NCBI GenBank assembly: GCA_030167865.1
Contig: JALAGF010002723.1
Location: 1-58,972, forward strand
Source of the DNA: Craspedostauros australis
Taxonomy: Eukaryota
Direction: 5' to 3'
Length of the DNA: 58,972 nt
How positions within the stretch are numbered: position 1 is the first letter of the stretch; each line of letters opens with the position of its first letter. A program made the translations under genes and the position numbers. Below the pieces are notes generated by a model. It did not search any database and was not told the DNA's origin. It saw nothing but the letters and a program-made list of their open reading frames with translations. This document shows, piece by piece, positions 7,775 to 43,707 of this stretch.

Positions 7775-9357
7775 TTGTTGTTTCGATTCAAGTGCTGATA
7801 GATGTTATCGATGGAGTTGTTGGCGTTGTAGTATCAGACGCCTGTTTCTGAAACCGTTCTCGACGTTTGAACGGCCGTCCACCGTTTCATCATGGTCGTT
7901 ATCAACGTCATCGTCCCCGTCGTCCCTGTCGTTGTCGCCACCGATCCAACGTTCAAGTTGCTGGGAGATGACGGACTTAATTAGTCTCAATACTAATATT
8001 CTTGAACGTCCACAAATGGCGCGCAATCCGAGAAAACACGGAATGGATGGGAGCCTCCAATACCAAGCGCAGAACCTGCACCATTCTGAACCCTCCTCTA
8101 CTTTCATTGCAAGGAACGACTTGGCTGCCTGTCGGACAGTGAACGGAATGCAGCATGTAGATTGTTTGTTGCAATGCTCTGTGGAGAGATCGCTTCAGTT
8201 TGGAATCGGTCTTCAGCTGCGAAGATCTCCGCAATCATCATTGCGTCACATGTGCATACTGGAGTAGAGCGCTCTTATCTAATATTGTCATGCTGTATAA
8301 TGGATAGGGGTATCACACTGACAACCCACTCGTATAGCAACCAAGTGCATCAGACTTCATTCCTCCATCTCCACTGTCATCTCTCTCTCTCTCCCTCTCT
8401 ACATTGCATCTCCAAGACTGTGGTCCAAACAAGGATCATTGAATCACCCTCCGATTTCGCGCCACCACAGCGTGGGCGAAGGTTGGGTCGCGAAGTGGTT
8501 GACGTCATTTTGTCCGAAACTCTGACGTCGGTCACGGTGACACATAATTCGTGGTCGGAAACAGCTGCAATCCAGTTGGGCCAGATGACTGTGAAGATGT
8601 CGAAGTGTCAACAGCTGCAAAAAGAACAGGGTGTGATGACTCGAACGAATGCGTTTTTGGGCGATGAAATTTTGTGTCGGTTGTTTTGGGATGACGCGAA
8701 ACAACGTATTGGCGCGGAACGTATCAACGAACAGATGTTATGTCGACGTGGGCAGGAGAATCGGCGCAATCAGGCGATGCAAGAAGGCCTGTGGACGCGA
8801 CCCACCATCACTCTGTCATCCCCCTTGTCGCGTCGCTTCCTCTTCCTCGGAGGTCCGAGGATCCTTCATGGCTTCTCGCGACGCAAAGAGGCAGACACAA
8901 CACGGCGCAAGAGGCAAGGGGGAGGGCAGAGCAAGACAGAACAAAAGACCAAGATCGCCACGGATCACACCACACACCCTTGCTCCGATCAAACCGAAGA
9001 GGTGCAGGCATCACAAACCCCGCCACCACCCACAACATTCTCCTTGTGCGCATCAAAGCAGAGGGGACAAAGAGGCACAGCATCAACAGAAGCTCATCGT
9101 GCAGCTGTCTGTTCGCAGTTGTGCACTTCACACCATCTGCTGCAAGAGCCCTTCGACGAGTCTCTGCCATTCTGTGTCTGTCGACCTCGATCTGCTCTGC
9201 TCCATTGTGACTCCACAAGTAGCTCGTGCTGGCATTCCTCCACCTCCATCGCAGAACGTTGTCAACGGAGCAAGATCTGCAATAGCATCACCCACAAACA
9301 TCACACACAAACACCACACAAACACCACATAGTTCCATCGTCACGCATCTCCGCGGC

Positions 9358-12300
9358 ATGGCATTCTGCTCCCAGAACAGAGGGATGAAGGCCGTATCCA
9401 AGCTGACGCAGGCGGGATCTTTGAGTCCTCACAACCGTCAGTACCACGAAGGCATGGAGGACATGGAAGGCATGGAGGGCATGGAGGGCGAGGAGAGCAG
9501 CAGCGGCAGCGATGGCGACAGCTACACGGGGTCATCCGACACGGGAACGTCCGACAGCTCCAGCGGGTACTCCAACACCGTCAGCTCCCTTGAGGAGCAC
9601 ATGTCGCCGCAGAAGCGAAGGGACATGATGGAGCAGGCGCTCAACGCGTACGACAAGGCGAATACCAAAGCCAAGCGCGCCAAGAACGCGAGATCGGCAT
9701 CGACGATGACCTCCAGGATTCCGACCGGCGAAGCCAGTCATGGGACTTCGCATGCGCACACCTTCGCGCATGATCAACCGCAGTACAAGAGCAAGATTCC
9801 GCAACCTGCGCATGCAACATCCTCGAGAGCCATCAGCAGCAGCAGCCCTGTCAAGACCAAGCCACGCGCCATTCCGCAGCAGCAACACAGCGTCCCGTGG
9901 GATGTGCAAGGCAAGTCCCTTGCGGAGGTCGTCCTCGAACGCATGGAAGAGAGCACTCCGCAGCCTTCGGAAGACGAGGGCGAACTTCAATCGCAGCAGC
10001 AGCAACTTCAAGCCCAACCACCGAACCCAACACGAAGCGCGCCGCAGCAGAAGAGTCGCGGGGAACAAGGGAATGGCGGTGGCGTGAGACTGACATCATC
10101 TCGTGACGCCGAGCAGCTCTCCGCGGATGCCAGAAAACCACCGTCCAATCAACAACCGCAGTCATCCGCCAAGGCACCGCACAAGGGCATCCTCACATCC
10201 CGCACCGCAGACATGCCATCTGTCCGGTCATCTCCGGCGGAAACGGCGGCATCTTTGTCCATCTCGCAGAGATCATCAGGCGATCCTTCCTCTGCCGCCG
10301 CCGCCGCCGCCGCTGGTAGCAAGGGGATGACGACCAATCGCAGCAAGGTCAAGGCCATCAAGGCCGCAGAGAAGGATCTGGGGATGGACGTCCAGTACTT
10401 GGCAGACGCTCTGGGAGTGCCGGCCTCATTCTTCGGTGTCGGGGTTTCCAAGCACGGTCGCGGCGCCAACATCTCGTCCAGCGCACCTGCATCCGTGGCA
10501 GGTTCCGTCAGCGCATCACCACCGTCTCAGCGTCCTCCATCCTCGGCTGCGCCAAACGCAACGCCATCCACGCCTGCCGCAGCGGCTGCTCCACAGCCAT
10601 CATCACCGGCGCAAGCCGGGGCCCAACAGAACCACGAACCCGTCAAGACGCTCACGTTGGCCGAAGCGCTCGGCGTGCCGCTCGAGAAGCCCTCTGCAAG
10701 CGAAGGCAGGGCAACGGTCGCCACGCCCGGCCGGACGCCTCCGAAGCAGACGCTTGCCAGGCGAGGCTCCATGGCAGCGGCCCTCGGTGTCACGGACCAA
10801 ATCAACCGCATCCGTGCTCAGAACAAGAAGAAGCAGATGCCACCTCCCAGCGCCGTCGCCAGCAGCTCCAGCTCCAGCGGCACCGATTCCGACAGCGATT
10901 CGGAGAGCGAGTCCACCGAATATGCCGAACTCAACACCAATCTGCAAGCCCAGCAGTACCAGCGCCGCAACAGATCCCTCTCCACTTCATCGCACACAGA
11001 GAGATCGGCCGACGGCTCCTACCAGTCGCGTTCCAGCGCCGCAACAGCACGCAGGGCGCAACCCAGATCGGCAGAAAGGCCCGCCATATCTGCAAGCAAC
11101 AGCAGCAAGACCAACACCAAAGCCTCCCGGCCTCAAGGTGGTGGAGCTGCTGCTGCTGCTGCTGCCTCCCGCCCAAAGCAAGGCAAGGAGAACGACATGG
11201 ACATCGACTACCTCGCGGCTGCCCTTGGTGTCCCGACATCGTTCTTCGATCTCAGTGGCAAAGCAACCTCAAAGGGAGGCCGCGGCAGACCAGGCCAGCA
11301 GCAGCAGCAACAGCAACCACCAAGACAAGAGCCATCCAGAAGGCCAGCTCCTGCCGCACAAACTGCAGGACCTCGAGGACAAGGCGCAACGACTGCCAGC
11401 CCGGGTGCCATGCCCAACAACCAAGCCGCAAGACGACCAGTCCCGCCCACGGCTGGTCGTGGAATCGCCACAGCGTCCCAGGCGCCCGTCAAGACCCTCA
11501 GTCTCGCGGAGGCCTTGGGCATTCCACTCGAGAAACCCACAACGGAACAGCAGCAGCCCGTCAGCAGGAATCCACAACGAAGAGTCCCTGCTGCCAGACA
11601 GACTGCGCAACAGCAACAGCCGCAAACTGCTGCTCCCAAGAAATCGTTATTCCAGCAAGTCATCAAGCATGCTGCAGAGTCGGAGGATGATGAATCCGTC
11701 TCCGACTCCGAATCCAGTGCCGACATGGGTGACGCATCCTCCTCGATGCCAGCACCGATCTTGGCACAGAACGGATCCCTCGCAGCCGCACTCGGAATGG
11801 GCATCGATCCTTCCTCCAGAGCGGCTCCCATTCGGCAAACCGCTTCGCCAATCAGGCCCCGCAAGCCCGTGGTTGCTGCAGTCAAGCGCACAAGCCATCT
11901 TTCACCCAACAAAGCTGGAGGCAAAAGCTTGTTCAGCACCATCATGCAGCGTGCCGAAAACGATGGCACCCAGTCGTCGACAAACGCAAACGCAACATCA
12001 CAAGTTGCTGCACCTCAAGTGGGATCGCTGGCGGCTGCTCTTGGCATGAGCGTCGATCCATCCGCCAAGGCAGCACCAATCCGCCAGAACGGCGCAGCGT
12101 CCAACAACAACAACAACAAGTCGTTGATGGATGTTGTGATGGGCAACATCGCAGATTCTGCATCAGATTCTGATTCAGATTCCGAGTCAGACTTTGAATC
12201 GTACGTTGATTCGATGATGAACAAGGCCACTGGCACAACAGCAACCAGCGTCAAGCCACAACTCGGTTCGTTGGCCGCTGCTTTGGGCATGTCGGTTGAT

Positions 12301-15300
12301 CCATCACCCCGAGCAGAACCCATCAAGCAGAAGTCTGGCACTTCGAAGTCCAAGACCAAGAAGAGTCTGTTCGATGGTATGCTGGCCAAGATAGGAGACG
12401 ACGGACATGGCCAGAGTGGCAACAAGACGCAGGCGTCTGCTTCTCAACCACAGTATGGATCACTGGCGGCAGCCCTGGGAATGAAGGTTGACACCTCCCC
12501 CAAGGCTTCGCCCATCAAGCAGGCGAAGCCATCTGCACAGACTCGCAAGCCGGCATCTTCCTTTGATCGCCCACAGTCTGGATCATTGGCCGCAGCGCTT
12601 GGCATGCAAGTAGATACATCCTCTCGTGCTGCTCCAATCAAGCAAGCCAAGCAACCAACATCGACAGGTCCTGGCGCGAAGAAGTCGTTGATGGAGATGG
12701 TCATGCAACGGGTCGCCGATTCTGATGACTCTGAAAGCTCCTACAGTGACGACAGCGACGACTACACAAGCGGCACAACAAGCCGTAGTGTGGCTGGTGT
12801 CAGTGCTCAACACGGATCACTTGCTGCGGCGCTTGGCATGAGCATCGATCCCTCGTCTACTGCGGCGCCCATTCGCACGGCCGACAATAAGTCAGCCGGC
12901 CCCTCGTCCTCCACCAAGGCTCAATACGACACCAAGACGCTCGTCTCGAGCGTACTGCAGCGCATCTCCGAATCACATGAGGAAGACGAAGACACAGGAT
13001 CCGACTCCGAATCCAGTGCCGACATGGGTGACGCATCCTCCTCGATGCCAGCACCGATCTTGGCACAGAACGGATCCCTCGCCGCTGCACTCGGAATGGG
13101 CATCGATCCTTCCTCCAGAGCAGCTCCCATTCGGCAAACCGCTTCGCCAATCAGGCCCCGCAAGCCCGTGGTCGCTGCAGTCAAGCGCACAAGCCATCTT
13201 TCACCCAACAAAGCTGGAGGCAAAAGCTTGTTCAGCACCATCATGCAACGTGCCGAAAACGATGGCACCCAGTCGTCGACAAACGCAAACGCAACATCAC
13301 AAGTTGCTGCACCTCAAGTGGGATCGCTGGCGGCTGCTCTTGGCATGAGCGTCGATCCATCCGCCAAGGCAGCACCAATCCGCCAGAACGGTGCAGCGTC
13401 CAACAACAACAACAAGTCGTTGATGGATGTTGTGATGGGCAACATCGTAGATTCTGCATCAGATTCTGAGTCTGATTCGGATTCCGAGTCAGACTTTGAA
13501 TCGTACGTCGATTCGATGATGAACAAGGCCACTGGCACAACAGCAACCAGCGTGAAGCCACAACTTGGTTCGCTGGCCGCTGCTTTGGGCATGTCGGTTG
13601 ATCCGTCACCCAGAGCAGAACCCATCAAGCAGAAATCTGACACTTCGAAGCCCAAGACCAAGAAGAGTCTGTTCGATGGTATGCTGGCCAAGATGGGAGA
13701 CGATGATGACGCTCAGAGCGGCAACAAGACACAGGCGTCTGCTTCTCAACCACAGTATGGATCACTGGCGGCAGCCCTGGGAATGAAGGTTGACACCTCC
13801 CCCAAGGCCGCACCAATCAAGCAATCCAGCGCGGTCACCAAGACAGCTCCGATGTCACCGAAAAGGTCGCTCATGGCGACAGTCATGCAACGGGTTGCCG
13901 ATTCTGATGATTCCGACGGATCTGACAGCGACTTCAGTGAACGGAATGGCGATGTTGGCACGAGCGGCGTCAACGCTCAGCACGGATCGCTTGCGGCAGC
14001 ACTAGGTATGAAAGTGGATCCATCATCCACCGCTCCAGCCGTCCGTCAAGAACCCGCTGGTCCCGATGGATTCGATAGCAACGAAAGTGAAAGCGAACAA
14101 GAGGAGAAGATGGAAGACCAGAGCCTTCTGGAGTGCATGCTCCCTCTCGGCGATGTCATGAAGATGCGTGTCACATCAGCTGCGCAGCCATCGTCTGGTG
14201 GGGCACCACCAGGCATGCGAAAATCCTCGTCCACCGCCAAGCTTGGCTCATTGGTGTCTGCGCTCGGGGCCCCGGTTGGTAGGGAACGTGTCGACATGGA
14301 CGCAGGCTCCAGCCACGACCGGGCTGGCAATCGCCGATCGAGTCCCACTGCACCATCCTCCTCATCATCGTCAGCTCCCAAACGAGACGCTTCGTCACCG
14401 AAGACTCCCGAACTTAGCCAGCGAAAGCAACATCAGCAGCAGCAGGCGCCGCCCGAAGAGCAGCGCAGGGCACAACCGCGTGGAAAAGAGTCGGCACAGA
14501 CCACAAACCGGGGTGTGCCGGCAGCGCAAGACCCAGCAGATTTGGACATCGATTATCTTGCGCAGGCTTTGGGTGTTCCCGCATCTTTCTTCGCATCGGG
14601 AAAATCCGGATCAAGCCCCAAGCCAGCGAGAGCAAAGCAACAACCCTCGAGCCAGCAAGCCGGAGGCTCGTCTAAGCAATCAACGCGAGATCTCAAGGAG
14701 CCCACCCATGATGACGACAAGCTTGCGGGTCAAAACCCAATGGCCACCGTGGACAGGAATGGAACCTTTTCATCAAGCGCAACTGCCACCACACGAGACG
14801 GAACTCTTCCACCCGAGCTGTCCGTGGTCACAAGGGCTCAAGACGGCTCACCTTCAGGCACGGGCGGGTCGCCAACAAGAACCGTCGGTTCCTACCTGAC
14901 GAATGAGACGGAGAGCAAGGTTTCTGTCATGGACAGCTTCTACGAGCACGTCGCCGAAGTGCGCAGCGAGATGACCGATCTCATCAGCGAGATATCGCAA
15001 ACGAAGCTCGACATGAGCGGCGTGAGGAAGGAAATCAACGTGCTTGAAAACCGCATCAAGACTCTCGAGACGGTGTCGACCAAGTCCGACGAAGACAACG
15101 CAGAGGATGTTGCTGCGATGCGAGAGTCGGAACAGACGCTGAAGACTGCCTTGATGGAGTCGGAGGCCAAGACAGCTGGCGTGAACAAATACAGCCAAAC
15201 ACTGGAGGAACAACTCTTCGCCAATTCCAAGAACTACTCTGACAGGCTGACGTCGTTGCACCAACAGCTGGCGACGTTCGAGCACCAGATCTCAGAGAAG

Positions 15301-18300
15301 TCCAGCAAGATCAAGAGGTTGGAATCGGACATTGACTCAGAACAACGCGTCAAGAAGGCCATTTCGGAAAAATGGATCCAGACCGAAGCCAAGCTGGAGA
15401 ACGTCTGCTCCGAACTTCAGCAATCTCGTGAACTCCTTCAGAAGGAGTACGAGGATGTCAAGAAATTGAAGCAGGGTCTGTTAGAAGACCGCGAGACTCT
15501 GAACACTCGCATGCAATCCAACGTCAAACCAGTTCCCATGGAATCCCACACGTCCGATATCCTGCGCAACATGGAATCCAACCTTCGTCGCGAAGGAGAA
15601 CGGAGGAAGAGTATCGCGGCGCGTTTGAAGGGAAGGTCTGGCGCCGGAGGCAGTGCTGCTTCGTCTCCCAGCAGCCCCGTCGCGAGAGATCTCGTTCGCC
15701 CAGCCAATGGAGTTGTCGTCGCTCCCGTCATGGTCGACGCAATGCACCACCCTACATCACCCTCCGCAACTCAATTCCGCGGCGATGTTTACTTGCCAGC
15801 ACTTGAGCGATCACGTGGGGCGCCGGTGCCGCAGCAGAAACCCAGAGGGAAGGACAGCAGCAGCAGCAGCGTTCCAGGGAAATCGCTTGGCGGCGCAGTT
15901 TTCACGAAACTGGCGACAAGCGATGCCCAATTCGCTGCGTCTTCCGCTCCGCCTGTCCAGACGAGAACTCTGGCAGAGGCACTTGGATTGCCACTCGAGA
16001 AACCGACGGCGGGCGATAACAATGATACGCCAACAACCCCGGCAATGCCCACGAAAACGGCTAGTTCGACAAAGCCATCGGTCGGAGCGAAATCGCTGTC
16101 CAATGTCGTGGTGCAGCGTCTCGCCGCGGGGCAAAGCAACGCTACAAGAGCGCAGCCACAAACCAAGACACTGGCAGAAGCGCTTGGAATGTCCCTTGAA
16201 GAGCCTCCTATTGTCGCTGAAAAGAGCGAACAGCAGGTTGAGCCCAGCTCGAAGTCACTGTCAAACGCTGTCGTCCAGCGGCTCACAAACCCAGCAGCGA
16301 TGTCCGCGTCACCTGCACCCAAGACGACCGCTCAGACCCAAACGCTGGCCGAAGCACTTGGTCTGACAGTCCAGGAGCCTGCTACTGCAAGCAGAGATGT
16401 GCCCAACCAAACCGCGACTCCTGCCGAATCAGCGAGATCCCTATCCACAACCGTAGTCCAGCGATTGTCCCATGGACGCAACGAAATTCCACGAGCGGCG
16501 GCACAAACGAAGACGCTTGCGGAAGCTCTTGGATTGCCGCTGGAAAAGGCAGACGACGCACCAGAGGCTCCTGCAAGCCAAGGCGGATCCGCCTCTAGAT
16601 CTCTCTCGAATGCCGTCGTCCAGAATCTTGTCACAAGTGATGGCGGCGGCATGAAGGTGGCCGCCACGGCTGCAACCGGTGGGCAGACAACCAAGACTTT
16701 AGCGGAAGCCCTTGGGCTGCCGCTCGAGAAACCTGAAGTGCGCAGCACCAATGCCGGCAGCGAAGCAGCACCAGCAAGCGCAACAATGGCAGCACCAGCT
16801 GGAAGGCCCAAATCACTTTCCACAGCTGTTGTGCAACGAATGTCCACAGCGGAAGGCGATCAGACTGCGCTGTCTGTGCCCAAGACGAGAACACTGGCCG
16901 AGGCTCTTGGACTGCCACTTGAAAACCCAGATGCTCTCGAGCAAAACACAACGAAACAAATGGCAACAACCAACCCCAAGTCATTGTCAGATGCCGTCGT
17001 GAAAAGACTCAACAGTCGCACACCCACCGTATCGGCGGCCACCATGCCATCAAATTCAGGCGAACGAAACGCAACGCCCACCAAGACGCTAACACTGGCC
17101 GAAGCTCTTGGATTACCCCTCGAAAGGCCAGTCCAAGATCAAGACCGCGAAGTTATGCCCGCACCCAAACCCGACAAGTCACTGTCAAATGCTGTCACAC
17201 AGAGGCTCGCCAACGGCACCGCTGCAACCCCAGCGGCACCAGCGGGCAAGACATTGACCTTGGCTGAAGCGCTGGGTTTGCCGCTAGAAAAGCCACAAGT
17301 CAGCAGTGTCGGCAGTGGTAGTGGACCAACCACGATGCCCGCACAACGCACAGCCAACACTCCAACATCCATGCCGCTTTCGGCTATCGTGATCGACAAC
17401 ATGGCTAGCGGGCAGGGGCGCAGCATTCAGGCCGCACCGCAGACAAGGACCCTTGCGGAGGCTCTCGGCATGCCACTCGAGAAACCAAGCGGTGTTGCTG
17501 CTGCAACTGCGGCTGCAACCAGAGCAACCCCTCCTCGCAGTATCACTCGCAAGGGGCAGATGAGTCCCAAGTCATTGTCAACTGCGGTTGTGCAGAGACT
17601 GGCGGGCGGCGCAGCGGCGGCGGCACCAACTAACCAACCACGGACGTTGGCCGAAGCGCTTGGACTGCCGATGGCAAGTTCGCCTGCGGTCCATGGGAGC
17701 GAAAAAGACCAAGTCAATCTGGCCCCATCGTCTTCGAAATCGTTGTCGAATGCGGTGGTGCAGAAACTGGCCGAAGGGGAGAGTGCAGGCAGAGCCACTC
17801 CACAAACCAGGACACTTGCCGAGGCTCTGGGTTTGCCCCTCGAAAAGACCGGTCCTCCCCCGAAGACAACCGCACCCATGGACGGCAACTCCAGATCGTT
17901 GTCGAGTGCCGTTGCACAAAGATTGGCAGACGGCACACCGGCAGCTACAACTGCTGCAACCTCAGGACTGCCCTCCAACAAGACGCTGACGTTGGCCGAA
18001 GCACTCGGGTTGCCACTCGAGAAGCCTTTTGTCGCCGCGAACGATGGACGTGAAAGGTCTATGCCAGTTGCGAAACCTACAAGCCATGACACGGCTGGTC
18101 CAGCATCGTTGTCCAACGTCGTCATGCGGCGGTTGGCTGATGGGCAACTGAGTCCCAGAAAGACATCCACTCAGACAAGGACACTGGCAGAGGCTCTCGG
18201 CTTGCCACTGGAGAAACCAGATGGCACAACTGCAAGTGGCAAGACAGAGAAGCCAAGTGCAGCGAAGTCACTGTCGAATGCTGTTGTGCAAAGGCTGGCC

Positions 18301-20622
18301 GAAACTCCAACATCAACATCAATATTACCTCCAGCCACGGCTGCTGCGAGCCAAACAAAGACCTTGGCGGAAGCGCTGGGGTTGCCCTTGGTAAATCCAC
18401 TCGTCGTGGCACAAACAGATGTTCGTGTGACAGCACCTGCAATGCCAGCGCCTGCAACTAAATCACTTTCGACGGCCGTGGTCGAGAGACTGGCTAGAGG
18501 CAAGGGCGGTGCACACGATAGCATGGCACAGGCCACACCAAGAACGAAGAGCCTGGCGGAGGCGCTCGGCTTGCCCATCGATCAAGGTGATGTCGGCACA
18601 GTGAAGAAGACAGAGAAGGCCAATGCTACTGCGACTACTTCAAGATCTCTTTCAAGCGCAGTCGTGGACAGACTGGCCTCCAACACGGCTTCGACTGCAC
18701 AATCACCAGTCAGCGCGCCAGCCAACAGTCAGACGAAGACGCTTGCGGAGGCTCTTGGCCTGCCACTCGAGCAGCTTGTTGTGGAGAGTGATGAAGATAG
18801 CGAGAGTGACAGCGATAGCGAAAGCGACAGTGATGATAGCACCGACAGTGGTTATGAAGGTATCAACGACGCTTCTGACCAGGAAGAGGATGCTCCTGAT
18901 GTCACTGATATAGCCGACGCTACGACCGACGCCAACGTCAACGCTACTGACAAGGATGATAGCACTGGCATTGGCGCAGTCCGAGATCCCGAAGACGTGG
19001 CATCCAAACCAAGCGATGGTATCGTTTCAGATAGTGCCACAATCGAAGATGCCGTCGCGGCTTCGACGGTTGATCCTCCTGGGGCCGTCACGAGAAGATT
19101 CAGTTCGCCTGTCTTCACGAAGAAGAAGCTCAGGATCCCAGCGATCCGACGGGAGCCGTCCGAGATTCATGACTCTACTGATGTGCACGACAACGGGAAC
19201 GCCGAGGACCCTGTTGCTTTGCTGGCAGCAGAGCTTCTGAGTCCACCCGAAGACGACACTGCGGCACCGGCGGAAGCCACCGAACCGCGCCCAGAGCCGA
19301 AGTCTTTGGCTGAAGTCGTCCTTTCAAGTGTTGCTGCACAGAAGAAGCATCCAGAAGCTGCAGGCAGCAACCTAGGTGGCCACACTCTGGCCCGGGCTCT
19401 CGGCCTGCCAGATCCAACAAGGGATGCTTCAGACGCAGCAGATCTCAGTTCCAGTGTGATTGAAGACGCCAATATCAAGGCCCGAGGTGGTATTGGAAGC
19501 ATCGCCGACGATGCTGTCAGTGATACGAGCGGCGAGGACGACGAAGGCAGGAGCGAGAGCGATTCCTCGTCATACAGCGACGAGTCCGACATGCCCATCA
19601 TCTACGCCAGACCCAAGACCGCCGATGGCAAGCCCCAAACTCTTGCCGAAGCGCTTGGCGTGAAGACAGAAATGGCATCCGAAAAGCAGATGCTGCAGAT
19701 TGAGGTGGACTTGCTGAAGAAGGAAGTCAAGGATGTCATTGGCAATGTTTCCACCATGAAGGAAGAGCTGGTGGCGTCAGTCGAGAAGAAGGAAGAGGAG
19801 TTGATGACGTCAAAGGAATCGCACGCAACGGTCTCGCGAGAGCTTGGTGCGATGGAAGGCAACGCAACGAGCCTCAGGAAGCAGAGAAACACGTTCATCG
19901 CGCTCGCGATGATCATCCTCGCAGCCGCATCCGCAATCTACTTCGGCGGTTTCGGTGCCGGTTTCCTCGGCTCATTCAAGACCGACGAAGTCGTGTTGGC
20001 GCCCTCTGATGGAATGGCGGCGTATGATCCAGCCGTGGCCAGACAGGTCGCACTCCGTCAGCGAATGGCGGCGTCCGCACGGCGCAGGAATATGGTGAAG
20101 AAGATGTCGGTCGCCACGGAGGCGCAGGGGTGTACTCGTGTGGCCCCAAGCGAACCAGCCATCGCCGTGCACGAAATTGCCGACAAGGCGTCGCCAGTTC
20201 AGGATGATGGAGCCGACAACCCGATTGCTTCGTCGCAAGGCCCTGGATTGGAGAAGATTAGCCTTGTCCAAGACGACGAGGAGAAGTCAGACGCAGATGC
20301 TGTGCCCAAGGCTGTCGAAGGCTCTGCCGACGAAGATAACCAGGCAGAGGAAGAGAAGGAGGAGGAACCAGATGCAACCGCTGTCGATCGCGAGCTGCAG
20401 CCACAGCCACAACACGTGGTTAACTTCCAGGCCCTTAAAAACGGCCGACAGAGCTTCATGAAGAAAATCACAAGGAGCCTGCCCAGGAGTCTGTCCAAGA
20501 ACCTGCCCAAGAAGCTGGGAAGGCAAATCGTCGCTGAGGTGAGGAAAACGTTGGCCGACAAGCCAATGGAGAAGCTTCAGGCTCTGGTGGAGAAGGAGAT
20601 CGAGGAGGGACTTTGGATGTAG
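9358..20622 (+). CDS. Giant (~3750 aa) intronless low-complexity repeat protein with a central coiled coil and a single C-terminal-region TM helix; function unknown
   Basis: Uninterrupted 11.2-kb ORF. More than 30 LAxALG motifs whose codons vary synonymously, which indicates selection at the protein level. Heptad-rich segment at ~14930-15630. Hydrophobic FIALAMIILAAASAIYFGGFGAGFLG at ~19894-19970. Start could be 9358, 9385 or a later Met. Confidence 0.85.
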   Translation: MAFCSQNRGMKAVSKLTQAGSLSPHNRQYHEGMEDMEGMEGMEGEESSSGSDGDSYTGSSDTGTSDSSSGYSNTVSSLEEHMSPQKRRDMMEQALNAYDKANTKAKRAKNARSASTMTSRIPTGEASHGTSHAHTFAHDQPQYKSKIPQPAHATSSRAISSSSPVKTKPRAIPQQQHSVPWDVQGKSLAEVVLERMEESTPQPSEDEGELQSQQQQLQAQPPNPTRSAPQQKSRGEQGNGGGVRLTSSRDAEQLSADARKPPSNQQPQSSAKAPHKGILTSRTADMPSVRSSPAETAASLSISQRSSGDPSSAAAAAAAGSKGMTTNRSKVKAIKAAEKDLGMDVQYLADALGVPASFFGVGVSKHGRGANISSSAPASVAGSVSASPPSQRPPSSAAPNATPSTPAAAAAPQPSSPAQAGAQQNHEPVKTLTLAEALGVPLEKPSASEGRATVATPGRTPPKQTLARRGSMAAALGVTDQINRIRAQNKKKQMPPPSAVASSSSSSGTDSDSDSESESTEYAELNTNLQAQQYQRRNRSLSTSSHTERSADGSYQSRSSAATARRAQPRSAERPAISASNSSKTNTKASRPQGGGAAAAAAASRPKQGKENDMDIDYLAAALGVPTSFFDLSGKATSKGGRGRPGQQQQQQQPPRQEPSRRPAPAAQTAGPRGQGATTASPGAMPNNQAARRPVPPTAGRGIATASQAPVKTLSLAEALGIPLEKPTTEQQQPVSRNPQRRVPAARQTAQQQQPQTAAPKKSLFQQVIKHAAESEDDESVSDSESSADMGDASSSMPAPILAQNGSLAAALGMGIDPSSRAAPIRQTASPIRPRKPVVAAVKRTSHLSPNKAGGKSLFSTIMQRAENDGTQSSTNANATSQVAAPQVGSLAAALGMSVDPSAKAAPIRQNGAASNNNNNKSLMDVVMGNIADSASDSDSDSESDFESYVDSMMNKATGTTATSVKPQLGSLAAALGMSVDPSPRAEPIKQKSGTSKSKTKKSLFDGMLAKIGDDGHGQSGNKTQASASQPQYGSLAAALGMKVDTSPKASPIKQAKPSAQTRKPASSFDRPQSGSLAAALGMQVDTSSRAAPIKQAKQPTSTGPGAKKSLMEMVMQRVADSDDSESSYSDDSDDYTSGTTSRSVAGVSAQHGSLAAALGMSIDPSSTAAPIRTADNKSAGPSSSTKAQYDTKTLVSSVLQRISESHEEDEDTGSDSESSADMGDASSSMPAPILAQNGSLAAALGMGIDPSSRAAPIRQTASPIRPRKPVVAAVKRTSHLSPNKAGGKSLFSTIMQRAENDGTQSSTNANATSQVAAPQVGSLAAALGMSVDPSAKAAPIRQNGAASNNNNKSLMDVVMGNIVDSASDSESDSDSESDFESYVDSMMNKATGTTATSVKPQLGSLAAALGMSVDPSPRAEPIKQKSDTSKPKTKKSLFDGMLAKMGDDDDAQSGNKTQASASQPQYGSLAAALGMKVDTSPKAAPIKQSSAVTKTAPMSPKRSLMATVMQRVADSDDSDGSDSDFSERNGDVGTSGVNAQHGSLAAALGMKVDPSSTAPAVRQEPAGPDGFDSNESESEQEEKMEDQSLLECMLPLGDVMKMRVTSAAQPSSGGAPPGMRKSSSTAKLGSLVSALGAPVGRERVDMDAGSSHDRAGNRRSSPTAPSSSSSSAPKRDASSPKTPELSQRKQHQQQQAPPEEQRRAQPRGKESAQTTNRGVPAAQDPADLDIDYLAQALGVPASFFASGKSGSSPKPARAKQQPSSQQAGGSSKQSTRDLKEPTHDDDKLAGQNPMATVDRNGTFSSSATATTRDGTLPPELSVVTRAQDGSPSGTGGSPTRTVGSYLTNETESKVSVMDSFYEHVAEVRSEMTDLISEISQTKLDMSGVRKEINVLENRIKTLETVSTKSDEDNAEDVAAMRESEQTLKTALMESEAKTAGVNKYSQTLEEQLFANSKNYSDRLTSLHQQLATFEHQISEKSSKIKRLESDIDSEQRVKKAISEKWIQTEAKLENVCSELQQSRELLQKEYEDVKKLKQGLLEDRETLNTRMQSNVKPVPMESHTSDILRNMESNLRREGERRKSIAARLKGRSGAGGSAASSPSSPVARDLVRPANGVVVAPVMVDAMHHPTSPSATQFRGDVYLPALERSRGAPVPQQKPRGKDSSSSSVPGKSLGGAVFTKLATSDAQFAASSAPPVQTRTLAEALGLPLEKPTAGDNNDTPTTPAMPTKTASSTKPSVGAKSLSNVVVQRLAAGQSNATRAQPQTKTLAEALGMSLEEPPIVAEKSEQQVEPSSKSLSNAVVQRLTNPAAMSASPAPKTTAQTQTLAEALGLTVQEPATASRDVPNQTATPAESARSLSTTVVQRLSHGRNEIPRAAAQTKTLAEALGLPLEKADDAPEAPASQGGSASRSLSNAVVQNLVTSDGGGMKVAATAATGGQTTKTLAEALGLPLEKPEVRSTNAGSEAAPASATMAAPAGRPKSLSTAVVQRMSTAEGDQTALSVPKTRTLAEALGLPLENPDALEQNTTKQMATTNPKSLSDAVVKRLNSRTPTVSAATMPSNSGERNATPTKTLTLAEALGLPLERPVQDQDREVMPAPKPDKSLSNAVTQRLANGTAATPAAPAGKTLTLAEALGLPLEKPQVSSVGSGSGPTTMPAQRTANTPTSMPLSAIVIDNMASGQGRSIQAAPQTRTLAEALGMPLEKPSGVAAATAAATRATPPRSITRKGQMSPKSLSTAVVQRLAGGAAAAAPTNQPRTLAEALGLPMASSPAVHGSEKDQVNLAPSSSKSLSNAVVQKLAEGESAGRATPQTRTLAEALGLPLEKTGPPPKTTAPMDGNSRSLSSAVAQRLADGTPAATTAATSGLPSNKTLTLAEALGLPLEKPFVAANDGRERSMPVAKPTSHDTAGPASLSNVVMRRLADGQLSPRKTSTQTRTLAEALGLPLEKPDGTTASGKTEKPSAAKSLSNAVVQRLAETPTSTSILPPATAAASQTKTLAEALGLPLVNPLVVAQTDVRVTAPAMPAPATKSLSTAVVERLARGKGGAHDSMAQATPRTKSLAEALGLPIDQGDVGTVKKTEKANATATTSRSLSSAVVDRLASNTASTAQSPVSAPANSQTKTLAEALGLPLEQLVVESDEDSESDSDSESDSDDSTDSGYEGINDASDQEEDAPDVTDIADATTDANVNATDKDDSTGIGAVRDPEDVASKPSDGIVSDSATIEDAVAASTVDPPGAVTRRFSSPVFTKKKLRIPAIRREPSEIHDSTDVHDNGNAEDPVALLAAELLSPPEDDTAAPAEATEPRPEPKSLAEVVLSSVAAQKKHPEAAGSNLGGHTLARALGLPDPTRDASDAADLSSSVIEDANIKARGGIGSIADDAVSDTSGEDDEGRSESDSSSYSDESDMPIIYARPKTADGKPQTLAEALGVKTEMASEKQMLQIEVDLLKKEVKDVIGNVSTMKEELVASVEKKEEELMTSKESHATVSRELGAMEGNATSLRKQRNTFIALAMIILAAASAIYFGGFGAGFLGSFKTDEVVLAPSDGMAAYDPAVARQVALRQRMAASARRRNMVKKMSVATEAQGCTRVAPSEPAIAVHEIADKASPVQDDGADNPIASSQGPGLEKISLVQDDEEKSDADAVPKAVEGSADEDNQAEEEKEEEPDATAVDRELQPQPQHVVNFQALKNGRQSFMKKITRSLPRSLSKNLPKKLGRQIVAEVRKTLADKPMEKLQALVEKEIEEGLWM
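11701..13808 (+). repeat. Intragenic direct repeat of ~806 bp: copy 1 at 11701-12506, copy 2 at 13000-13808
   Basis: Both copies begin tccgactccgaatccagtgccgacatgggtgacgcatcc and end atgaaggttgacacctcccccaaggc. They differ by scattered substitutions and in-frame indels (one fewer aac, one extra SE dipeptide). Confidence 0.95.
15880..18780 (+). repeat. Array of 16 degenerate ~60-aa protein repeats, each KSLSxAVVQRLA-linker-TxTLAEALGLPLEKP
   Basis: 16 LAEALG motifs counted from ~15961 to ~18733, each preceded by one SLSxxVVxRL-type motif. Confidence 0.9.
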
Positions 20623-35877: not shown

Positions 35878-38800
35878 ATGACAACCACCAAGTCACCACC
35901 ATCAGACGCCTCCGGCTTCTTGGAGGCTCCGCCGTCGTTGCCGCGTGGGCGCTTGGCCTACGGATTCTGCGTGCGGGCATTGCGAAGACGGCTTTGGAAG
36001 GCCGTCCAGCATGAGAATGCGGACCTCATGCTGCGGCTCTACCAAGCGGACGAGCAGGACTTCACCGTCATCCTGCAGGAGGAGATCCAGGCGGAGTGGG
36101 ATCGATACAACGGCAATCTGCAAAACTCCATAGCGAAGCAGCAGGACCAGTCACGGTCGATGGCGATGAACGGCCATCGGAAGGGCAGCAAGGTGAGTGT
36201 ACCAATACCAATGTCGGCACGTTGGGGTGGTCTGCCTCCCATCTTACCACTATTTCCACTGTTCCACTGTTTCCACTCGCACTTTGTTGGTGTCGCCCAA
36301 TGTCCATCCATTCGCCCATCCGTGCGCCTATCCATTCGTCCATCCATTGCAACCACTTCGCCCACTCACTGGTGTACCTCTTCATTTGCAACTGCTTCTG
36401 CGTACTTGCACATACCAATGCCCTACCCAATCACAGCGTGGCCTTGGACTGTCATCCCAGCGCTCGAAGAGACGCAGCAAGGATGGCGATGGCATCAACG
36501 CACATGGAACACCATTCGTCAGCCGAGTCATTGCATGCATTCCAAACGAGAACGGACTCGATGCTGCAGATTCGAGCGCTGCCGCAGGTGCTCCAGGAAT
36601 CGGAGGCAAGCGGAGAATACAGGCATCCTCGGCACCGTCATCATCAACAACAACAGCGCAACCAGCTGGTTCATCGCACTTCAAACCTGCGGAACAATCA
36701 ACCGCGGTCGATGACTGGCCCCAATTTCGCAAAGGCCAGTCCATCCTCGAATTCGCATTGAGCCCATCCGATCCATTCACTCCTGATGACTTCCTGTCTC
36801 CGTACGACCCGTACACCGACGGGAGGGCAGGGACGGAGGACAGCGATGACGAGGCGGACTCCAACGATCGTGATTTCCGAAGCGGCTCACTCGCGGAACG
36901 ACGACGAAAGCGACAGATCGAGCGTCGGCAGCGGGCAGATGGGTCATCATCTTCGAACGGACCCCGCATGGCCTTCCGCCACTGGTGGGGTGGGGGCAAC
37001 AAAGGAAGCGACTTCGCCAGTAGTATCAACTCCGCGTCACGCCAAGCGTTCACCACGGGCCCGTCGCTCAATGGACCAGGACAATTCGACTCTGTTCAAC
37101 TCAGCATGAATGGTAGCAACCTCTCCGGGGACCACAATGGCGGACACGATGTGTACTGGACGACCCCTTTGCACGAAGCCGCGCGGTTGGGGTCCGGAAA
37201 GCTCATGCGATGGATGCTCGAACGAACAGTCGACGAGGCGGACCCAAACATCAAGAACGGACGAGGCCGAACCGCTCTGCACATGGTATGCGGAGGCATG
37301 ACGACGTACGAGAGGGTCTTTCAGAAATCGACCGCCAAGGGCAGATCAGGCTCCGTCAAAAAGATGGCGACGCACGCTGAGAATGGAGACCAATCTGAGG
37401 CAACACAAAATGGTGGTGACAGGCACACGGCGATGCAAACGCCAGTTGTTGGCATCGGTATTGGCATTCCCAGCATCCCACCTCATCACAACAACATCAA
37501 TGATATGGATTCGAAAGCCAAAAAGTCCAGATCAGTGGGCGGCAAAGCGAAGAAGGCCATGAGCCGCATGTTCAAATCCATGCGCTCATCCACGAAATCG
37601 AGGCAGGCGCAGAAGGGGGACGGCACCGAAAGTGATGATCTGATCGACGACCCGTTGGATGCAATCTATGGACCAACTCCGGCACGCATTATCAGAGATG
37701 CTCGCACCAGCAAACGCAAGCAAAAGCGCAAGGAGAAACTGCGACGAATCGAAGCCGACCGCATGGATGCCGTCCTTACGGTCCTTTCGTGGACTCAGCA
37801 GGCAGCGCAAGCGTCGAACGGTGCGGCCGCGCTTCCCGCATCAGCGGGAGGCCTGATGGATTCGGATCCCTTCCATCAGGGCAACGACTTTGGCGCAAGC
37901 AACGGTCCGCCTTCCGTCAACGCTGTGGACAAACTGGGCAGAACGGCGTTGCATTACGCCGCAGAGACTGGACGTGGTGATATCTGCCGATCCATCCTCT
38001 CCTCAACCTTCGGTGTCCTCCTGACCATTGTCGATGACGTCGGCGCACGCACCCCTTGCGAGTTGGCCGCGATGCATGGGCATCAAGAACTCACAGCGCA
38101 TCTCGAGGCAAGGGCCTTGCTGTACACCGACCCGTACGGAATGGAAGATGAGTACTCCGGATGGAACGTCGAAGAGGAGTACGGCTACGACGACGCGGGC
38201 AACTACCTCGTGTATGATCCGTACGAAGGACAGATAAGACAAACGCTCGACGAGGTGCTGGCGCGAAAGCGGAAGAAGCTCGCAGCTCCGTTTGGTTGGT
38301 TCGTCACCTTGGACATGGACCAGGTGAATGCGGAACGTCAAAGGCGGTTGGATAAGATTCGTCGGTACATTTTCTCGTACGTTCACAAATGGCATGCCCA
38401 GCAGATGTCAAAGATCGAGGCCAAAGCGGCCGCGAAACTTGCTCAGGACAGGTCCGAAGACATGGAAATCATGGCAGCGATCGCGGCGTTGACCAATGAA
38501 GAAAAGAAGCCACCGCCATCTGCTATCGCATCGTCGGCACCACTGACAGCAGCAGCGCATAAGAAGCCAAGTGCGAAACTAACGAAGGGCGTTGCAGTCG
38601 GCGTTGGCGTGAAGAAGTTGCAACCAGGGATGCACGTGGCAATTGGTGTCGCTGCTGGCGAAGATAATAGCGATGGTGGTAGTGACGATGACGACGATGA
38701 TGATGTGAAACCTCGTGCCGCGAAGAAGAAGGCGGCGCGTGCAAAATTCAATGCCAAAGGCACCGGCGAGGAACAAACAACCACCGGTGGTGACAGTGAT

Positions 38801-41800
38801 GACGAGTCTGATCTTGATCGCAAACCGGCTGCGAAGCCTCGAGCAAACGTTTCGCCCCGCACAACTACGAAACTGAAGGACCCTCCAAGAAGCGACACTG
38901 TTGCGGCCACAACCACAGCAGCACAGGTTCCAGCACAAGATGATGACATTGAAGGTCGTACCTCGAGAAGTGCCAGCTCGACCGATGATGCCCACGCCAA
39001 TGTAGAAGCACCACAGGAAGGCGAGACAGCTGTAGATGCGGGACAGACATCTGAGCAACAAGCTGAAAATGATGCTGAGAATGCATCCAGCGATCAGGTC
39101 GACTCCGCAGTCAAATCCTCGACATCTGACGACGAGGATGTTTCGCCCGAAAACGCCGATGTGGACGTGGTTGTCGAAGACACCACAAATGATGACACGA
39201 AAGAGCCTGCGACCAAACCTGCGGACGACGACGACCAGAAACTCATTCCAGGCGAAGACAAGGGACAAGAGCAGCAGGGGGAGGAGGAGGCAAAAGCTGA
39301 GCAGAAAGAAGCAAGTGCAACCTCCGCCGACGTCAGCGGCAACGAAAATGCGAGCGAATGCCCTAACTTGAGCAAAGGCTCCGCAAATGATAGCGAGATT
39401 GCAAACAGCGACGACGCTGCTACCTCCGACATGAAGCCGCCAAAAACATTGAAACCTGGCTGTGCTGGATCCAAAGCGGTTGACGCCAAGTCAGGCGCTG
39501 GGAATACGAGCAAAGATGACACGCAGCCTCAACCCGACGATATTGAAGATACAGATGCCAAGATGCCGCCCGTTGTTACGCAATCGATCAGTGATTGTTC
39601 CGATGACAAAGCTCAGCCCGATAGTAAGTCTCGCGACACTGATGATGCGACGCATGAGAAAAGTGACACGATCGAGCAGAGCATCGTTGCTGGCGCAGAT
39701 GGTAGGACTGCCAACAGCAATGATGTGGCACCACCGCCACCAGCAGCAACCACGGCAACGGCAGTATCGACAGCAACGACGCCAACCAATCGAACTGATG
39801 CCTCCGCTGCGCCCGCATGTACTTCGCAAGAAGAAATCATCTCGGCGCCGATCAAAATGATGGACAAGCTGCAAAATGCTCACGTCGAGCAGTTCTTGTC
39901 GCATCACAAGTGGAAGTACGAAGATGCACGAGAGGCGTTCAAGAGAGAAATGTTCAAGTCGTTCGAAACAGCTGGAGTGGATATATCATCGGCGTCTCCC
40001 CAGGCAGCCGCCACATCCACTGCACATGATGATACGGGTACTGTCTGTATGATCTGTTACGACGATGAAATAGCTGAAGGCGAGTGGCAGCAGCTGCAAG
40101 GCTGTGTGCACGGTTTCTGCAAACCTTGTCTGAGGGACTATCTTGGCGATTGTGCCTCCGCGAAGGCAACGGGATTGTGCGTCGCCTGTCCGCATCACGA
40201 ATGCAAGAGCTTCTTGACCACGGAGGAGATCTCCTCCCTCCTCGAGAATCAGCCCGAAACGCAGTCGAGGATATTCGAAGCGGCCAACGAACAGTTCGTA
40301 TCGACGTGCGTCGACACGCGCTTTTGCCCTCACCCCGGATGCAACGGTATCGTTCGCAGGCTTCACCAGAGCGCGTTCAACTCGCTTGGAGCCGACATGG
40401 ACCTGCTCAACTTCCTGGGTGCAGTCTGCACGGCACCCTCCGCCCCAGTCAAAGGCATCACAACTCTCACGTACGAGGGCGTCGTTGATCCCGAATACAA
40501 GAATTGTCGCAGCCTGGAGCGACCGCGTGTAGCACACCGATTCTGCTTCGAATGTGGCGAGAACGTCCATTGGCCTGTGTCCTGCGCACGGTTGGAGGAA
40601 TGGAACAGCAAGATCAAGGAGGAGCTTGGCGACGTGGACGGCGCAAAGGCCAACAGCGACGATGTGTCAGATGTCGCACAGAAGTTGTGGATCAAGGCCA
40701 ACACGCGTCCGTGTCCCAAATGCAACGTCCCCATCGAGAAGAATGACGGGTGCAACCATATGACGTGCAGCAATCCCAGCTGCAACCACGAATTCTGCTG
40801 GATCTGTCGCAAGGACTGGAAGCTCCATGGAACCTCCACCGGAGGGTTCTTCCGTTGCAACATCTGGACCGACGACGGCGACGACGCGACGTTGCAGGGC
40901 GACACGCATGATGACACGCTTCCCACTACCGCCGCGAGAGCAAACGACCAAGGCTTCATCAATGGCGACAACAACGACCAGGGTTACGGCACCGCCATCC
41001 ATGCCGCGAGATCCGCGTACAAGCAAAAGCGGGAGATGGATCGCTTCCTCCACCACTTCACCAGGTGCAACGCTCACGCGGAAAGTGCGGAGCTGGAACG
41101 GAAGATGGCGGACACGGTCTCCATCAGATTGGCGCCGGTGGTGGAGGCAGCTGTTGAATTCGATGGGAATTCCCACTTCAACTTCGGTGGGAAGGGTCTT
41201 TCATTCGTGCATTCTGCATTTGCCGAATTGTTGGAATGCCGCTCCGTCCTTCAGCACAGCTATCCCTTCTCGTACTTTCGGTACCCCTCCTTCATCATGA
41301 TCCGCAGGTATGGGCAGCTTACCCAGATCCGACGTGAGAAGGCTTCTTTCGAGAAACTGCAGTCCGAACTGGAAACGATGACGGAGCAGATGAGCGACAT
41401 CGTGGCGCGGTCGCACCTCCGGGCCAGCCAGTTCCAAATCGCCTTCCTCACCAAGGGCGCTGCAGAAAAACGACAAGAATTTTCCAATTTCTTGCTCTCC
41501 ATCCTCCTTGAGGAAAGGAAGGAGCAGAGAGCCGATGCTACCCCCATCAGCACAGCCGACCTCGTTCGCGCAGCGGTCAGGGCCCGAGAGCGAATGATAG
41601 ACTCATCGCCGTTCCCACCGAGCGTTGTGAATCGTATGATGGACGATGTCTGGCCGAGGAACGATGGCAATGGAGGCCTCATGTACCCGAGCAACCAGAT
41701 TAGGGACGCGCTTCGTTCAAGTCTGGACCAGTACGTGCTGAATCCCAGCCAGCCGAGGGAAGCCACCCTGGACCCTATGGCCACGAATGCGCTCGACACC

Positions 41801-41896
41801 AACGCATCTGCCATGTGGGCCTGCGATGCCTGCACCTACATGAACTCCGATGGTGGCCGTCGTTGTGCGATGTGTGGCACAGGGCGCTCACGCTGA
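35878..41896 (+). CDS. Ankyrin-repeat Ariadne-type RBR E3 ubiquitin ligase (ANKIB1-like) with C-terminal RanBP2/NZF finger; exons 35878-36192 and 36437-41896 (alternative in-frame acceptor at 36461), ~1920 aa
   Basis: Ankyrin motifs TPLHEAA, GRTALHMVC and GRTALHYAA. RING1 CMIC...CVHGFCKPC...CPHHEC, IBR FCPHPGC...HRFCFEC...HWPVSC, RING2 PCPKC...KNDGCNHMTC...HEFCWIC. Ariadne helices RFLHHFTR...ELLECRSVLQHSY. WACDACTYMN...CAMC at the C-terminus. Donor AAG|GTGAGT at 36193 is phase 0. Confidence 0.88.

Positions 41897-42412: not shown

Positions 42413-43707
<1,295 letters not shown>

Follow-up and report, generated by a model that had tools for sequence, protein, structure and literature searches.

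We consider a gene of the diatom Craspedostauros australis (GenBank assembly GCA_030167865.1, contig JALAGF010002723.1), lying in a forward-strand stretch of 58,972 bases (positions 1 to 58,972) that we call the window. The gene occupies 9358..20622 (+) and encodes a giant protein that carries many copies of two short motifs, A and B, on disordered linkers, followed by a transmembrane (TM) helix near the C-terminus. Its layout is that of a multivalent linear-motif scaffold, a known kind, and the family itself is undescribed, conserved and apparently lineage-restricted. The closest described systems are the pyrenoid linkers EPYC1 of Chlamydomonas and PYCO1, which likewise consist of tandem units of ~60 amino acids (aa) with short conserved stickers on disordered spacers. 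EPYC1 and PYCO1, however, are small soluble Rubisco binders of the plastid stroma, while the protein considered here has 3754 aa with a TM helix, a conserved coil and a tail. The import signal of diatom plastids is a signal peptide together with a transit peptide; neither such a signal nor a soluble stromal form is seen here, the protein having no N-terminal hydrophobic segment and one TM helix. PYCO1 of Phaeodactylum uses two different sticker motifs (PMC10288592). The likeness to EPYC1 and PYCO1 is one of layout and not of family, and in that sense the comparison with EPYC1 drawn in an earlier note on this DNA, made from the letters alone, is an analogy and not a relation.

Other systems share parts of the layout. 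Membrane-anchored FG-nucleoporins (e.g., POM121) bear short hydrophobic motifs on polar disordered spacers and are multivalent binders of folded carriers. The present protein resembles them in its tens of short hydrophobic motifs, its polar disordered spacers and its tie to the membrane, but it has 0.9% Phe, its motifs are LAxALG or KSLxxxVxxR and not FG, and its TM helix is at the C-end and joined by a long coil; nor is it known to be linked to pores. A tail-anchored protein has its TM helix no more than a few tens of residues from the C-terminus; golgins such as giantin are of this kind, nearly all coiled coil, and have a very short lumenal end. With giantin the protein shares a length of more than 3000 aa, a predicted cytosolic bulk, a C-terminal membrane anchor and coiled coil; on the other hand, only ~340 of its 3754 residues are proline-free coil candidates, and the 214 residues beyond the TM helix mean that it does not count as tail-anchored. 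The centrin-binding repeats of Sfi1 form one continuous helix. Both would be giant polypeptides on which short helical sites, set at even intervals of about 30 aa, bind a small reader many times over, but here the sites are split by linkers with 11% Pro, and the Sfi1 consensus is not seen. Giant KASH proteins (nesprins and ANC-1; WIP and SINE of plants) resemble what is predicted for this protein in that most of their great length is cytosolic, the TM helix lies close to the C-end and the last residues beyond the membrane are conserved; their cytosolic part is made of spectrin or ARM repeats, while here it would be made of disordered motif arrays. According to Zhou et al. 2014 (PMC4050730), a KASH protein is one whose post-TM sequence forms the C-terminus, measures 9-40 aa, ends in PPPX (animals) or xxPT (plants) and binds SUN in the perinuclear space. 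Our sequence after the TM helix does form the C-terminus, but it is 214 aa long and the terminal four residues of the family are GLWM, GLWM, DMWM, NFWI and DQWV.

The open frame of the motif-array gene spans 11.3 kb. As first described, it is a single giant frame: it starts with ATG and runs for 3754 codons plus the stop with no internal stop, and an intron is not needed. Over its whole length the protein contains 7.5% Pro and 4 Cys. From its sequence and those of its relatives, we take it to be a genuine, selectively maintained single-pass membrane protein, whose small family has so far turned up in raphid pennate diatoms alone. Its parts, in order, are as follows.

9559..9945, + strand: N-terminal Ser/acidic region, which holds the conserved islands SSGYSNTVSSLEE at aa 68-80 and, at aa 178-196, the first A motif, PWDVQGKSLAEVVLERM, based on blocks that share 9 or more of 12 residues with Stauroneis constricta
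10345..10446, + strand: K-module KVKAIKAAEKDLGMD, then FF-module VQYLADALGVPASFFGV (aa 330-363)
11194-11259 and 14536-14604: two more FF-modules
11632..14037, + strand: N-block array (aa 759-1560), with 10 A and 11 B
11682..13764, + strand: segmental tandem duplication within the N block
14134..14298, + strand: conserved non-repeat islands CMLPLGDVMKMR and KLGSLVSALGAPVGRE (aa 1593-1647), also present in relative P0007
14875..15642, + strand: central coiled-coil region (aa 1840-2095), the best conserved part of the protein
15871..18789, + strand: C-block array (aa 2172-3144), 16 units in strict A-B alternation
18778..19620, + strand: acidic Ser/Asp/Glu-rich disordered stretch (aa 3141-3421), with one isolated B (aa 3339-3353, nt 19372-19416)
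19621..19887, + strand: last B motif PQTLAEALGVKTE running into a short second coil EKQMLQIEVDLLKKEVKDV (aa 3422-3510), just before the membrane
19888..19977, + strand: single TM helix (aa 3511-3540), by Kyte-Doolittle hydropathy
19978..20619, + strand: post-TM tail of 214 aa, ending ...EEGLWM-COOH

The loose pattern [LM][AVS]xAL[GL] finds motif B in 35 copies and the strict pattern [ST]LAxALG[LMVI] in 31, which agrees with the more than 30 copies counted before. All the strict copies are within this frame: the six frames of the window hold none elsewhere, and each of 1000 shuffles of the protein holds none. Motif A (consensus K-S-L-x-x-x-V-h-x-R-h, ~11 residues) has 28 regular-expression matches, where about 28 were counted earlier, but two of them (aa 3706 and 3710, in the tail) are unlike the motif and 26 are retained; a stricter pattern finds 24 copies, whereas 1000 shuffles average 0.034 and never hold more than 2. 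Both motifs are far above chance. The alternation of A and B is strict over aa 2172-3144, where the B-to-B spacing is 55-67 aa. Motif B occurs in three flavours, and the flavours of A and B switch together between the two blocks. A unit of the N block runs from A (KSL[FM]xxxMxR) through an acidic Ser cluster to a long B, 'PQxGSLAAALGMxVDPSxxAAPI[RK]Q'; in the C block, A is 'KSLSxAVVQRL' (with one degenerate copy) and B is 'QT[KR]TLAEALGLPLEKP'. Motif B can be written P-Q-x-G-[ST]-L-A-x-A-L-G-h with a short tail; its family-wide form is P-Q-x-G-S-L-A-x-A-L-G-M-x-V-D-P-S-S-x-A-P-P-I-R, and the FF-module, of which the protein has three, reads 'D-x-D-Y-L-A-x-A-L-G-V-P-x-S-F-F'. The motifs of the arrays are 0% Pro and 37.4% hydrophobic; the linkers, rich in S, T, A and P, are 11.1% Pro and 11.9% hydrophobic.

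The next question is [quoted passage not shown] Among the 16 C-block copies, motif B is 87% identical at the protein level and 39% at third codon positions, motif A is 70% and 38% identical respectively, and the linker directly after B is 9% identical. Each invariant residue of B is encoded by 2-4 different codons among these copies. Between genera the picture is the same. In the comparison with the S. constricta ortholog (aligned positions), B is 88% identical, A 56% and the linkers 34%, so that conserved short motifs alternate with proline-rich spacers that are not conserved, in keeping with the short motifs on disordered linkers described earlier; the central coil is 67% identical, the pre-TM coil 54%, the TM helix 23% and the tail 38%. 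Position by position, 39 blocks with at least 9 of 12 residues identical match S. constricta, and most of these blocks are single motif copies. Purifying selection therefore acts on the motifs and not on the DNA repeat, and the motif copies are old and individually maintained. Such copy-by-copy conservation is the pattern expected of binding sites, not of a mere spacer.

The arrays also gain units. Within the N block, a tandem duplication of ~1.3 kb inside the frame (11682-12462 against 12981-13764) has 93-96% nucleotide identity; 256 of the 310 aligned codons are identical, 29 have synonymous-only differences and 25 change the residue. This recent duplication adds four units. Copy number clearly changes fast in the family, as seen from this duplication and from the ~40 units of the Nitzschia inconspicua protein.

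We turn our attention to the relatives. A profile of the 26 A-linker-B units (alignment A1) was scored against all 1.84 billion representative proteins, and it matches 27 proteins at E <=0.001, 13 at E <=1e-10 and 9 at E <=1e-30, including giants of 3825, 3335 and 2569 aa. Cluster look-up reached P0036 of N. inconspicua, 4957 aa long with ~40-45 near-identical 61-aa units. Word-index searches, an insensitive method, returned P0002 (2959 aa, 38% identity) as the sole long relative and, among the shorter candidates, the protein's own fragment only; the unit profile against the longer candidates gave 10 matches and no further named taxa. No relative was found in two single-protein metagenome locus scans, nor any usable match in the ESM Atlas with aa 1830-3754 and aa 3420-3754. 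The organism look-up took in 30 sequences, one being this protein. Of the clusters, 4 name an organism, and all 4 are raphid pennate diatoms: S. constricta (MMETSP1352), Nitzschia sp. RCC80 (MMETSP0014), N. inconspicua and a Bacillariaceae metagenome-assembled genome (MAG). These names suggest a family restricted to raphid pennate diatoms, and they do no more than suggest it because only 4 clusters carry organism names. The S. constricta and Nitzschia sp. RCC80 relatives come from MMETSP entries, which are transcriptome assemblies; the orthologs are therefore expressed as very long mRNAs. Motifs kept in related species and orthologs in two MMETSP transcriptomes are the opposite of the outcomes that the earlier note had named beforehand as refuting it.

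The relatives agree in the order of their parts. P0002 and P0030 belong to one S. constricta gene, with which our protein is collinear, and the start is common to the transcript P0030 (MAFCAQDRG there, MAFCSQNRG here); the part order is the same in the long relatives. The central coil, with the signatures 'SxKWIxTExKLExxCxELQxSRxLLxKEYEDV' and 'TSDILRNMESNLRREGERRKxIxARLKxR', is detected by blastp in all 11 family proteins tested, 64% identical to that of S. constricta and 25-33% to those of the others. Ten family members were examined for the modules: all 10 have the FF module and 8 the K-module. B arrays, the K/FF module and a central coil with W-x-E-T-E...SR-x-L-L and T-S-x-x-L...R-L-K-x-R operationally define the family, and all are found here; the long forms add a pre-TM coil, the TM helix and a tail ending in W-[MIV]. 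The last B and the pre-TM coil are retained in P0002/P0030, P0005 and P0018. An amphipathic stretch followed by W-[MIV]-COOH ends 5 of the 7 tails aligned (the five ends given above); of the other two, one is labelled partial and one continues into a doubtful gene-model extension. The latter belongs to P0036, whose model overruns the family '...ENW' end by ~50 residues and has an N-terminal extension before MGNEQSG, and both ends of this gene model are probably mis-predicted.

The N-termini differ within the family. Orthologs from Bacillariales have ankyrin repeats near the N-terminus, and they start with MGNEQSG (P0010 aa 1-7) or contain it (the over-extended P0036, aa 26-32), where our protein begins MAFCSQ. 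MGNEQSG fits the N-myristoylation pattern M-G-x-x-x-S; if real, it would anchor the Bacillariales proteins at both ends.

The family also contains members with little of motif A. The giant P0004 has about 19 B and only about 3 A, and the short relatives P0006, P0009 and P0052 (1313-1616 aa) have K/FF modules, the same central coil and B arrays almost without A. This makes B the core element, and the alternation of A and B, noticed earlier in our protein, is a feature of one branch: it is strict in our C block, while one giant and three short relatives have hardly any A. The short relatives lack a TM helix and come to a natural end just past '...RRKSIKARL...'; through the coil they could form pairs with the membrane-bound giants. 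Outside the family, a 615-aa fragment (P0017) carries the B flavour KKPQTLAEALGVKTE, that of our protein's last B (aa 3429), within a different repeat beside 'FGNNPIRxGHSAAKYL'; a pattern scan counts 4 copies and several more degenerate ones are seen by eye. The motif is therefore in use outside the giant family.

We next consider the coils and the membrane anchor. Two stretches stand out as the longest without proline, aa 1840-2057 (218 aa) and aa 3427-3548 (122 aa). The one central coil of the earlier account is thus present, but a second, short coil stands directly before the TM helix, and the chain is probably paired by the central coil and this membrane-adjacent one, to judge from their sequences. 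The acidic stretch ahead of the pre-TM coil has a net charge of -25 and -23 in two 250-aa bins. The TM helix at aa 3511-3540 is the only Kyte-Doolittle peak (19-residue window, KD19) above 1.5, with a maximum of 2.16, so that the single TM segment near the C-terminus stands. An N-terminal hydrophobic segment or signal peptide was not found, the maximum KD19 in the first 80 aa being -0.16, and such a segment is absent from all 7 family proteins with a TM helix. The TM helix of our protein is flanked by 3 K+R on its N side and 1 on its C side, and the flank charges of 6 of the 7 orthologs fit the cytosolic N-terminus proposed before. Since 3,500 residues precede the anchor, this is the only plausible orientation, and we infer that ~3,510 N-terminal residues would be cytosolic and the tail of ~214 residues lumenal or extracellular. 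Tails after the TM helix measure 177-334 aa across 7 family proteins, with 0-1 Cys (5 in the doubtful P0036 model) and few N-glycosylation sequons. In our tail, a basic helix (aa 3558-3584, nt 20029-20109) is followed by ~100 aa of disordered acidic sequence and then by C-terminal helices (aa 3690-3749, nt 20425-20604).

The protein has no compact fold. As the earlier note had it, no globular domain is recognisable: no Pfam-A family reaches its gathering cut-off, all 5 listed matches lying below (the best, DUF1664, is a coil-type match at aa 1949-2036 with 18 bits against a cut-off of 34.6, E 0.003), and the whole protein has no match among PDB sequences at E <=0.1. Against the PDB, the best hit of the B profile is at chance level (E 0.07, a fatty-acid-synthase dehydratase stretch KTLARALGLGVEQ), that of the A profile has E 1.4, and the coil profile (alignment A6) gives keratin-type coil noise only, E 0.023. 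An AlphaFold2 (AF2) model of two units (aa 2791-2894), built on an alignment of 13 non-overlapping two-unit segments that all come from this protein, has a mean pLDDT of 58, a pTM of 0.19 and no packing between motifs. Its helices are those of the two A motifs (10-11 residues, pLDDT about 65-68) and a single turn at each B core. For the tail, AF2 on alignment A7 (six orthologs, P0003 numbering) places helices at residues 6-32 and 138-197, with a pTM of 0.20 and a pLDDT of 70-89 at the C-end helical pair and below 50 for residues 30-132; Foldseek finds 0 matches of this model in the PDB at E <=10. A complex prediction with an A-peptide and a B-peptide scored 0.00 with alignments unused and the partner fold uncertain, and it counts neither for nor against binding.

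"Two helical motifs", the phrase used at first, is weakly supported by these models as a fair description. The short AF2 helices agree with it, but their pLDDT is about 65, B is only one turn, and A is modestly and B not amphipathic.

Some names and matches in the family are misleading. The source name of an N. inconspicua fragment (P0012) is TPX2, but no TPX2 family is among the Pfam matches of P0012 (E <=0.001), of its cluster mate P0036 (E <=0.01) or of our protein (E <=1); the name looks like an automatic label. The Pfam family ToxA_N scores 206.5 bits on P0036 (aa 3255-3330) and 39.6 bits on P0012 (aa 268-344) with 0 individually significant stretches, which looks like weak similarity summed over ~40 tandem A/B repeats, and on our protein it has no match at E <=1. 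The K-module of P0004 (aa 294-331) has a sub-threshold Xre-like helix-turn-helix (HTH) match (E 0.0009, 19.9 bits against a cut-off of 25.8), and in their 'helix-L-G-hydrophobic' pattern the K and B motifs look like the opening helix and turn of a bacterial HTH domain, probably by convergence. Among known short motifs considered, WH2, SAP/HeH, LD motifs, the clathrin box, SxIP and the LC8 'TQT', as well as FFAT, LIR, MIM1, 14-3-3 and PxLPxI/L ankyrin ligands, all misfit in spacing or key residues. In the literature searched, which lay outside subscription journals and bioRxiv supplements, the motif strings match by accident only, four public accessions of relatives are not mentioned, and no relevant diatom protein with repeats, a TM helix and coiled coil appears by title or abstract. 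Within that literature the family is undescribed; the "undescribed system" of the earlier note holds for the family, but not for a partner or pathway.

Combining this information, we favour a reading to which we give about an even chance: a cytosol-facing, coil-paired, membrane-tethered multivalent docking scaffold for external readers, as the sequences lead us to picture it. A disordered cytosolic chain would display ~60 short conserved binding elements (26 A, 35 B and a few K/FF modules) and would be paired by the conserved central coil of 220-250 aa and by the second coil at the membrane. Each motif would be a weak site for one or more folded cytosolic reader proteins, and through avidity a single molecule or dimer could gather tens of reader copies at one membrane, where they might form a surface condensate. 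The outer tail would end in a conserved helical pair and W-hydrophobic-COOH. As to which membrane, none of the results points to the silica deposition vesicle or the cell cortex, two of the places put forward in the earlier note. We prefer an external reader, a point on which we rely on inference, to an obligate pairing of A with B because B arrays occur without A, without a TM helix and, in P0017, in another repeat context.

Several observations weigh against the docking scaffold. It is from the architecture that the docking function is drawn, and the invariant small residues of B (A..x..G, spaced by one turn) could serve the packing of helices against each other as well. The strict ABAB order with similar spacing in five orthologs could mean that A and B act as one unit. 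Motif helicity comes from AF2 on a shallow alignment, with a lower pLDDT for B than for A, and from a propensity scale; by hydrophobic moment, 27% of the A copies and 0% of the B copies exceed the protein's 95th percentile. The transcript support comes from orthologs and not from this gene itself. As for the topology, N-flank K+R exceeds C-flank in 6 of 7 family proteins and the rule fails in P0004, and the last 60 residues of the tail are net basic, +3 to +7 in 6 of 7 orthologs.

The first alternative is a self-associating sticker network, in which A binds B, or B binds B via its small-residue face, in cis or between molecules. No external reader would be involved, and the membrane would be coated by an elastic gel or a condensate. 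The five orthologs with strict A/B alternation, the joint change of A and B flavours between the N and C blocks, and the invariant L-A-x-A-L-G of B with Ala and Gly one helical turn apart are all compatible with it. That a diatom repeat protein can use oligomerising stickers is shown by PYCO1 (PMC10288592). The B-only arrays of P0004 and of the three short relatives, however, mean that A:B pairing is not general, and the AF2 model of an A-B-A-B segment shows no helix contacts (pTM 0.19, from a shallow alignment). We consider this network possible but unlikely.

Could the chain be a passive tether, spacer or entropic spring instead, whose length and flexibility matter, e.g., for the spacing between organelles or membranes, and whose motifs are only local structure? 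The extreme disordered length, which varies from 2959 to 4957 aa and from about 20 to 40 units between species, would suit such a role, as would the Bacillariales orthologs that may be anchored at both ends (MGNEQSG, which resembles a myristoylation signal). A spacer, however, does not need 88% identity in B against 34% in the linkers, copy-by-copy conservation across genera, or invariant residues over scrambled codons. The entropic spring suggested in the earlier note fits poorly with the position-by-position conservation of single motif copies, and we regard the passive tether as improbable.

A special case of the docking scaffold is a transmembrane coupler of the raphid diatom adhesion-motility complex, with arrays that bind actomyosin under the raphe and a basic outer tail that holds anionic adhesive strands. 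In current gliding models, hypothetical and unnamed 'transmembrane components' or a 'transmembrane complex' are drawn between myosin and the adhesive strands. All four organism names are raphid pennates (Stauroneis, two Nitzschia and the Bacillariaceae MAG), and the last 60 tail residues carry net +3 to +7 in 6 of 7 orthologs. But the raphid-only range comes from few named family members, no match is named for other sequenced raphid genomes (only 4 clusters being named), and no link to actin, myosin or the raphe was found in this analysis. The outer tail, furthermore, is short, mostly acidic and disordered, with 0-1 Cys and few N-glycosylation sequons, unlike typical adhesion receptors. We judge the coupler very improbable. 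Its fuller form is a long shot: under the raphe, a coil-paired chain would recruit myosin or actin-linked adaptors to its dozens of cytosolic A/B sites, the basic, conserved outer tail would grip the anionic strands, one molecule would transmit the force of many motors, and the short TM-less relatives, with the same coil, would tune it.

We also weigh a KASH-like protein of the outer nuclear envelope (or the chloroplast endoplasmic reticulum), whose C-terminus is held in the lumen by a SUN-type partner and which links the nucleus to cytosolic structures. By the KASH definition (PMC4050730), the tail of 214 aa (177-334 aa in orthologs) is too long for the required 9-40 aa, and the end GLWM is neither PPPX nor xxPT. 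The giant cytosolic part, the coil, the TM helix near the C-end, the free C-terminus with W-[MIV] in 5 of 7 tails and the C-terminal helices, the most confident part of the tail model, are what such a protein would show, and we leave it a slim chance.

An extracellular or wall-associated mucin-like protein, its Ser/Thr/Pro-rich arrays standing outside the cell as adhesive or matrix, is hardly credible. Its linkers are rich in S, T, A and P, as secreted diatom adhesives also are. No signal peptide or N-terminal hydrophobic segment is present in any of the 7 proteins, however, and it is implausible that the 3,500 residues ahead of a C-terminal anchor should be carried across the membrane; the 3754 residues include only 4 Cys, and the acidic Ser clusters look like cytosolic kinase targets. 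To a spurious frame or an assembly artefact of a repeat we give practically no credence: although the exact full-length protein is missing from the protein collection described below and the frame contains a 1.3-kb duplication, 3754 codons run without a stop, the orthologs are collinear and two of them transcript-derived, codons are scrambled under invariant residues, and the duplicated copies, which differ by 4-7%, are for that reason not a repeat that the assembly collapsed or expanded.

Diatoms account for a large share of marine carbon fixation, and much of their cell biology rests on lineage-specific proteins. The only strongly conserved parts of this one are ~60 short peptides, the coil, the membrane anchor and the C-terminal end. 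Motif B looks like a new class of linear motif, which must have a reader; identifying that reader would give access to a new interaction module of diatoms and reveal what a membrane-tethered array of tens of sites does for the cell, be it the work of a surface condensate, of a motor platform or of an organelle tether. Should the family prove confined to raphid pennates, it would be a candidate for functions peculiar to that group, gliding and raphe or valve morphogenesis. There is a caution for annotation as well. The exact 3754-aa protein is missing from a collection of 15 billion proteins, where only its last 202 residues are found (P0003, from a 1246-base contig), so the full-length protein is not to be had there, and relatives carry misleading names ('TPX2') or repeat-summed false Pfam matches. 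It would seem that automatic annotation overlooked or fragmented this gene.

The genes around it are eukaryotic: a Na+/H+ exchanger, TYW2, an M16 peptidase, Cdc73, clathrin light chain, ATG9, importin-alpha, COQ5 and an ankyrin-RBR/Ariadne ligase, most of them in long uninterrupted frames, which is what a diatom-like genome leads one to expect. The last is a frame of 1899 aa at 36197-41896 (+) with ankyrin repeats and an IBR/Ariadne (RBR) ubiquitin ligase. At 45949-49344 (-), a frame of 1131 aa has a sub-threshold match only, to bHLH-MYC_N (27.5 bits, cut-off 30.2). A CA-rich microsatellite (9286-9329, 3.5 copies of the unit CATCACACACAAA) immediately precedes the start codon of the motif-array gene, and an ACATC pentanucleotide repeat of ~32 copies occupies the intergenic positions 43196-43358.

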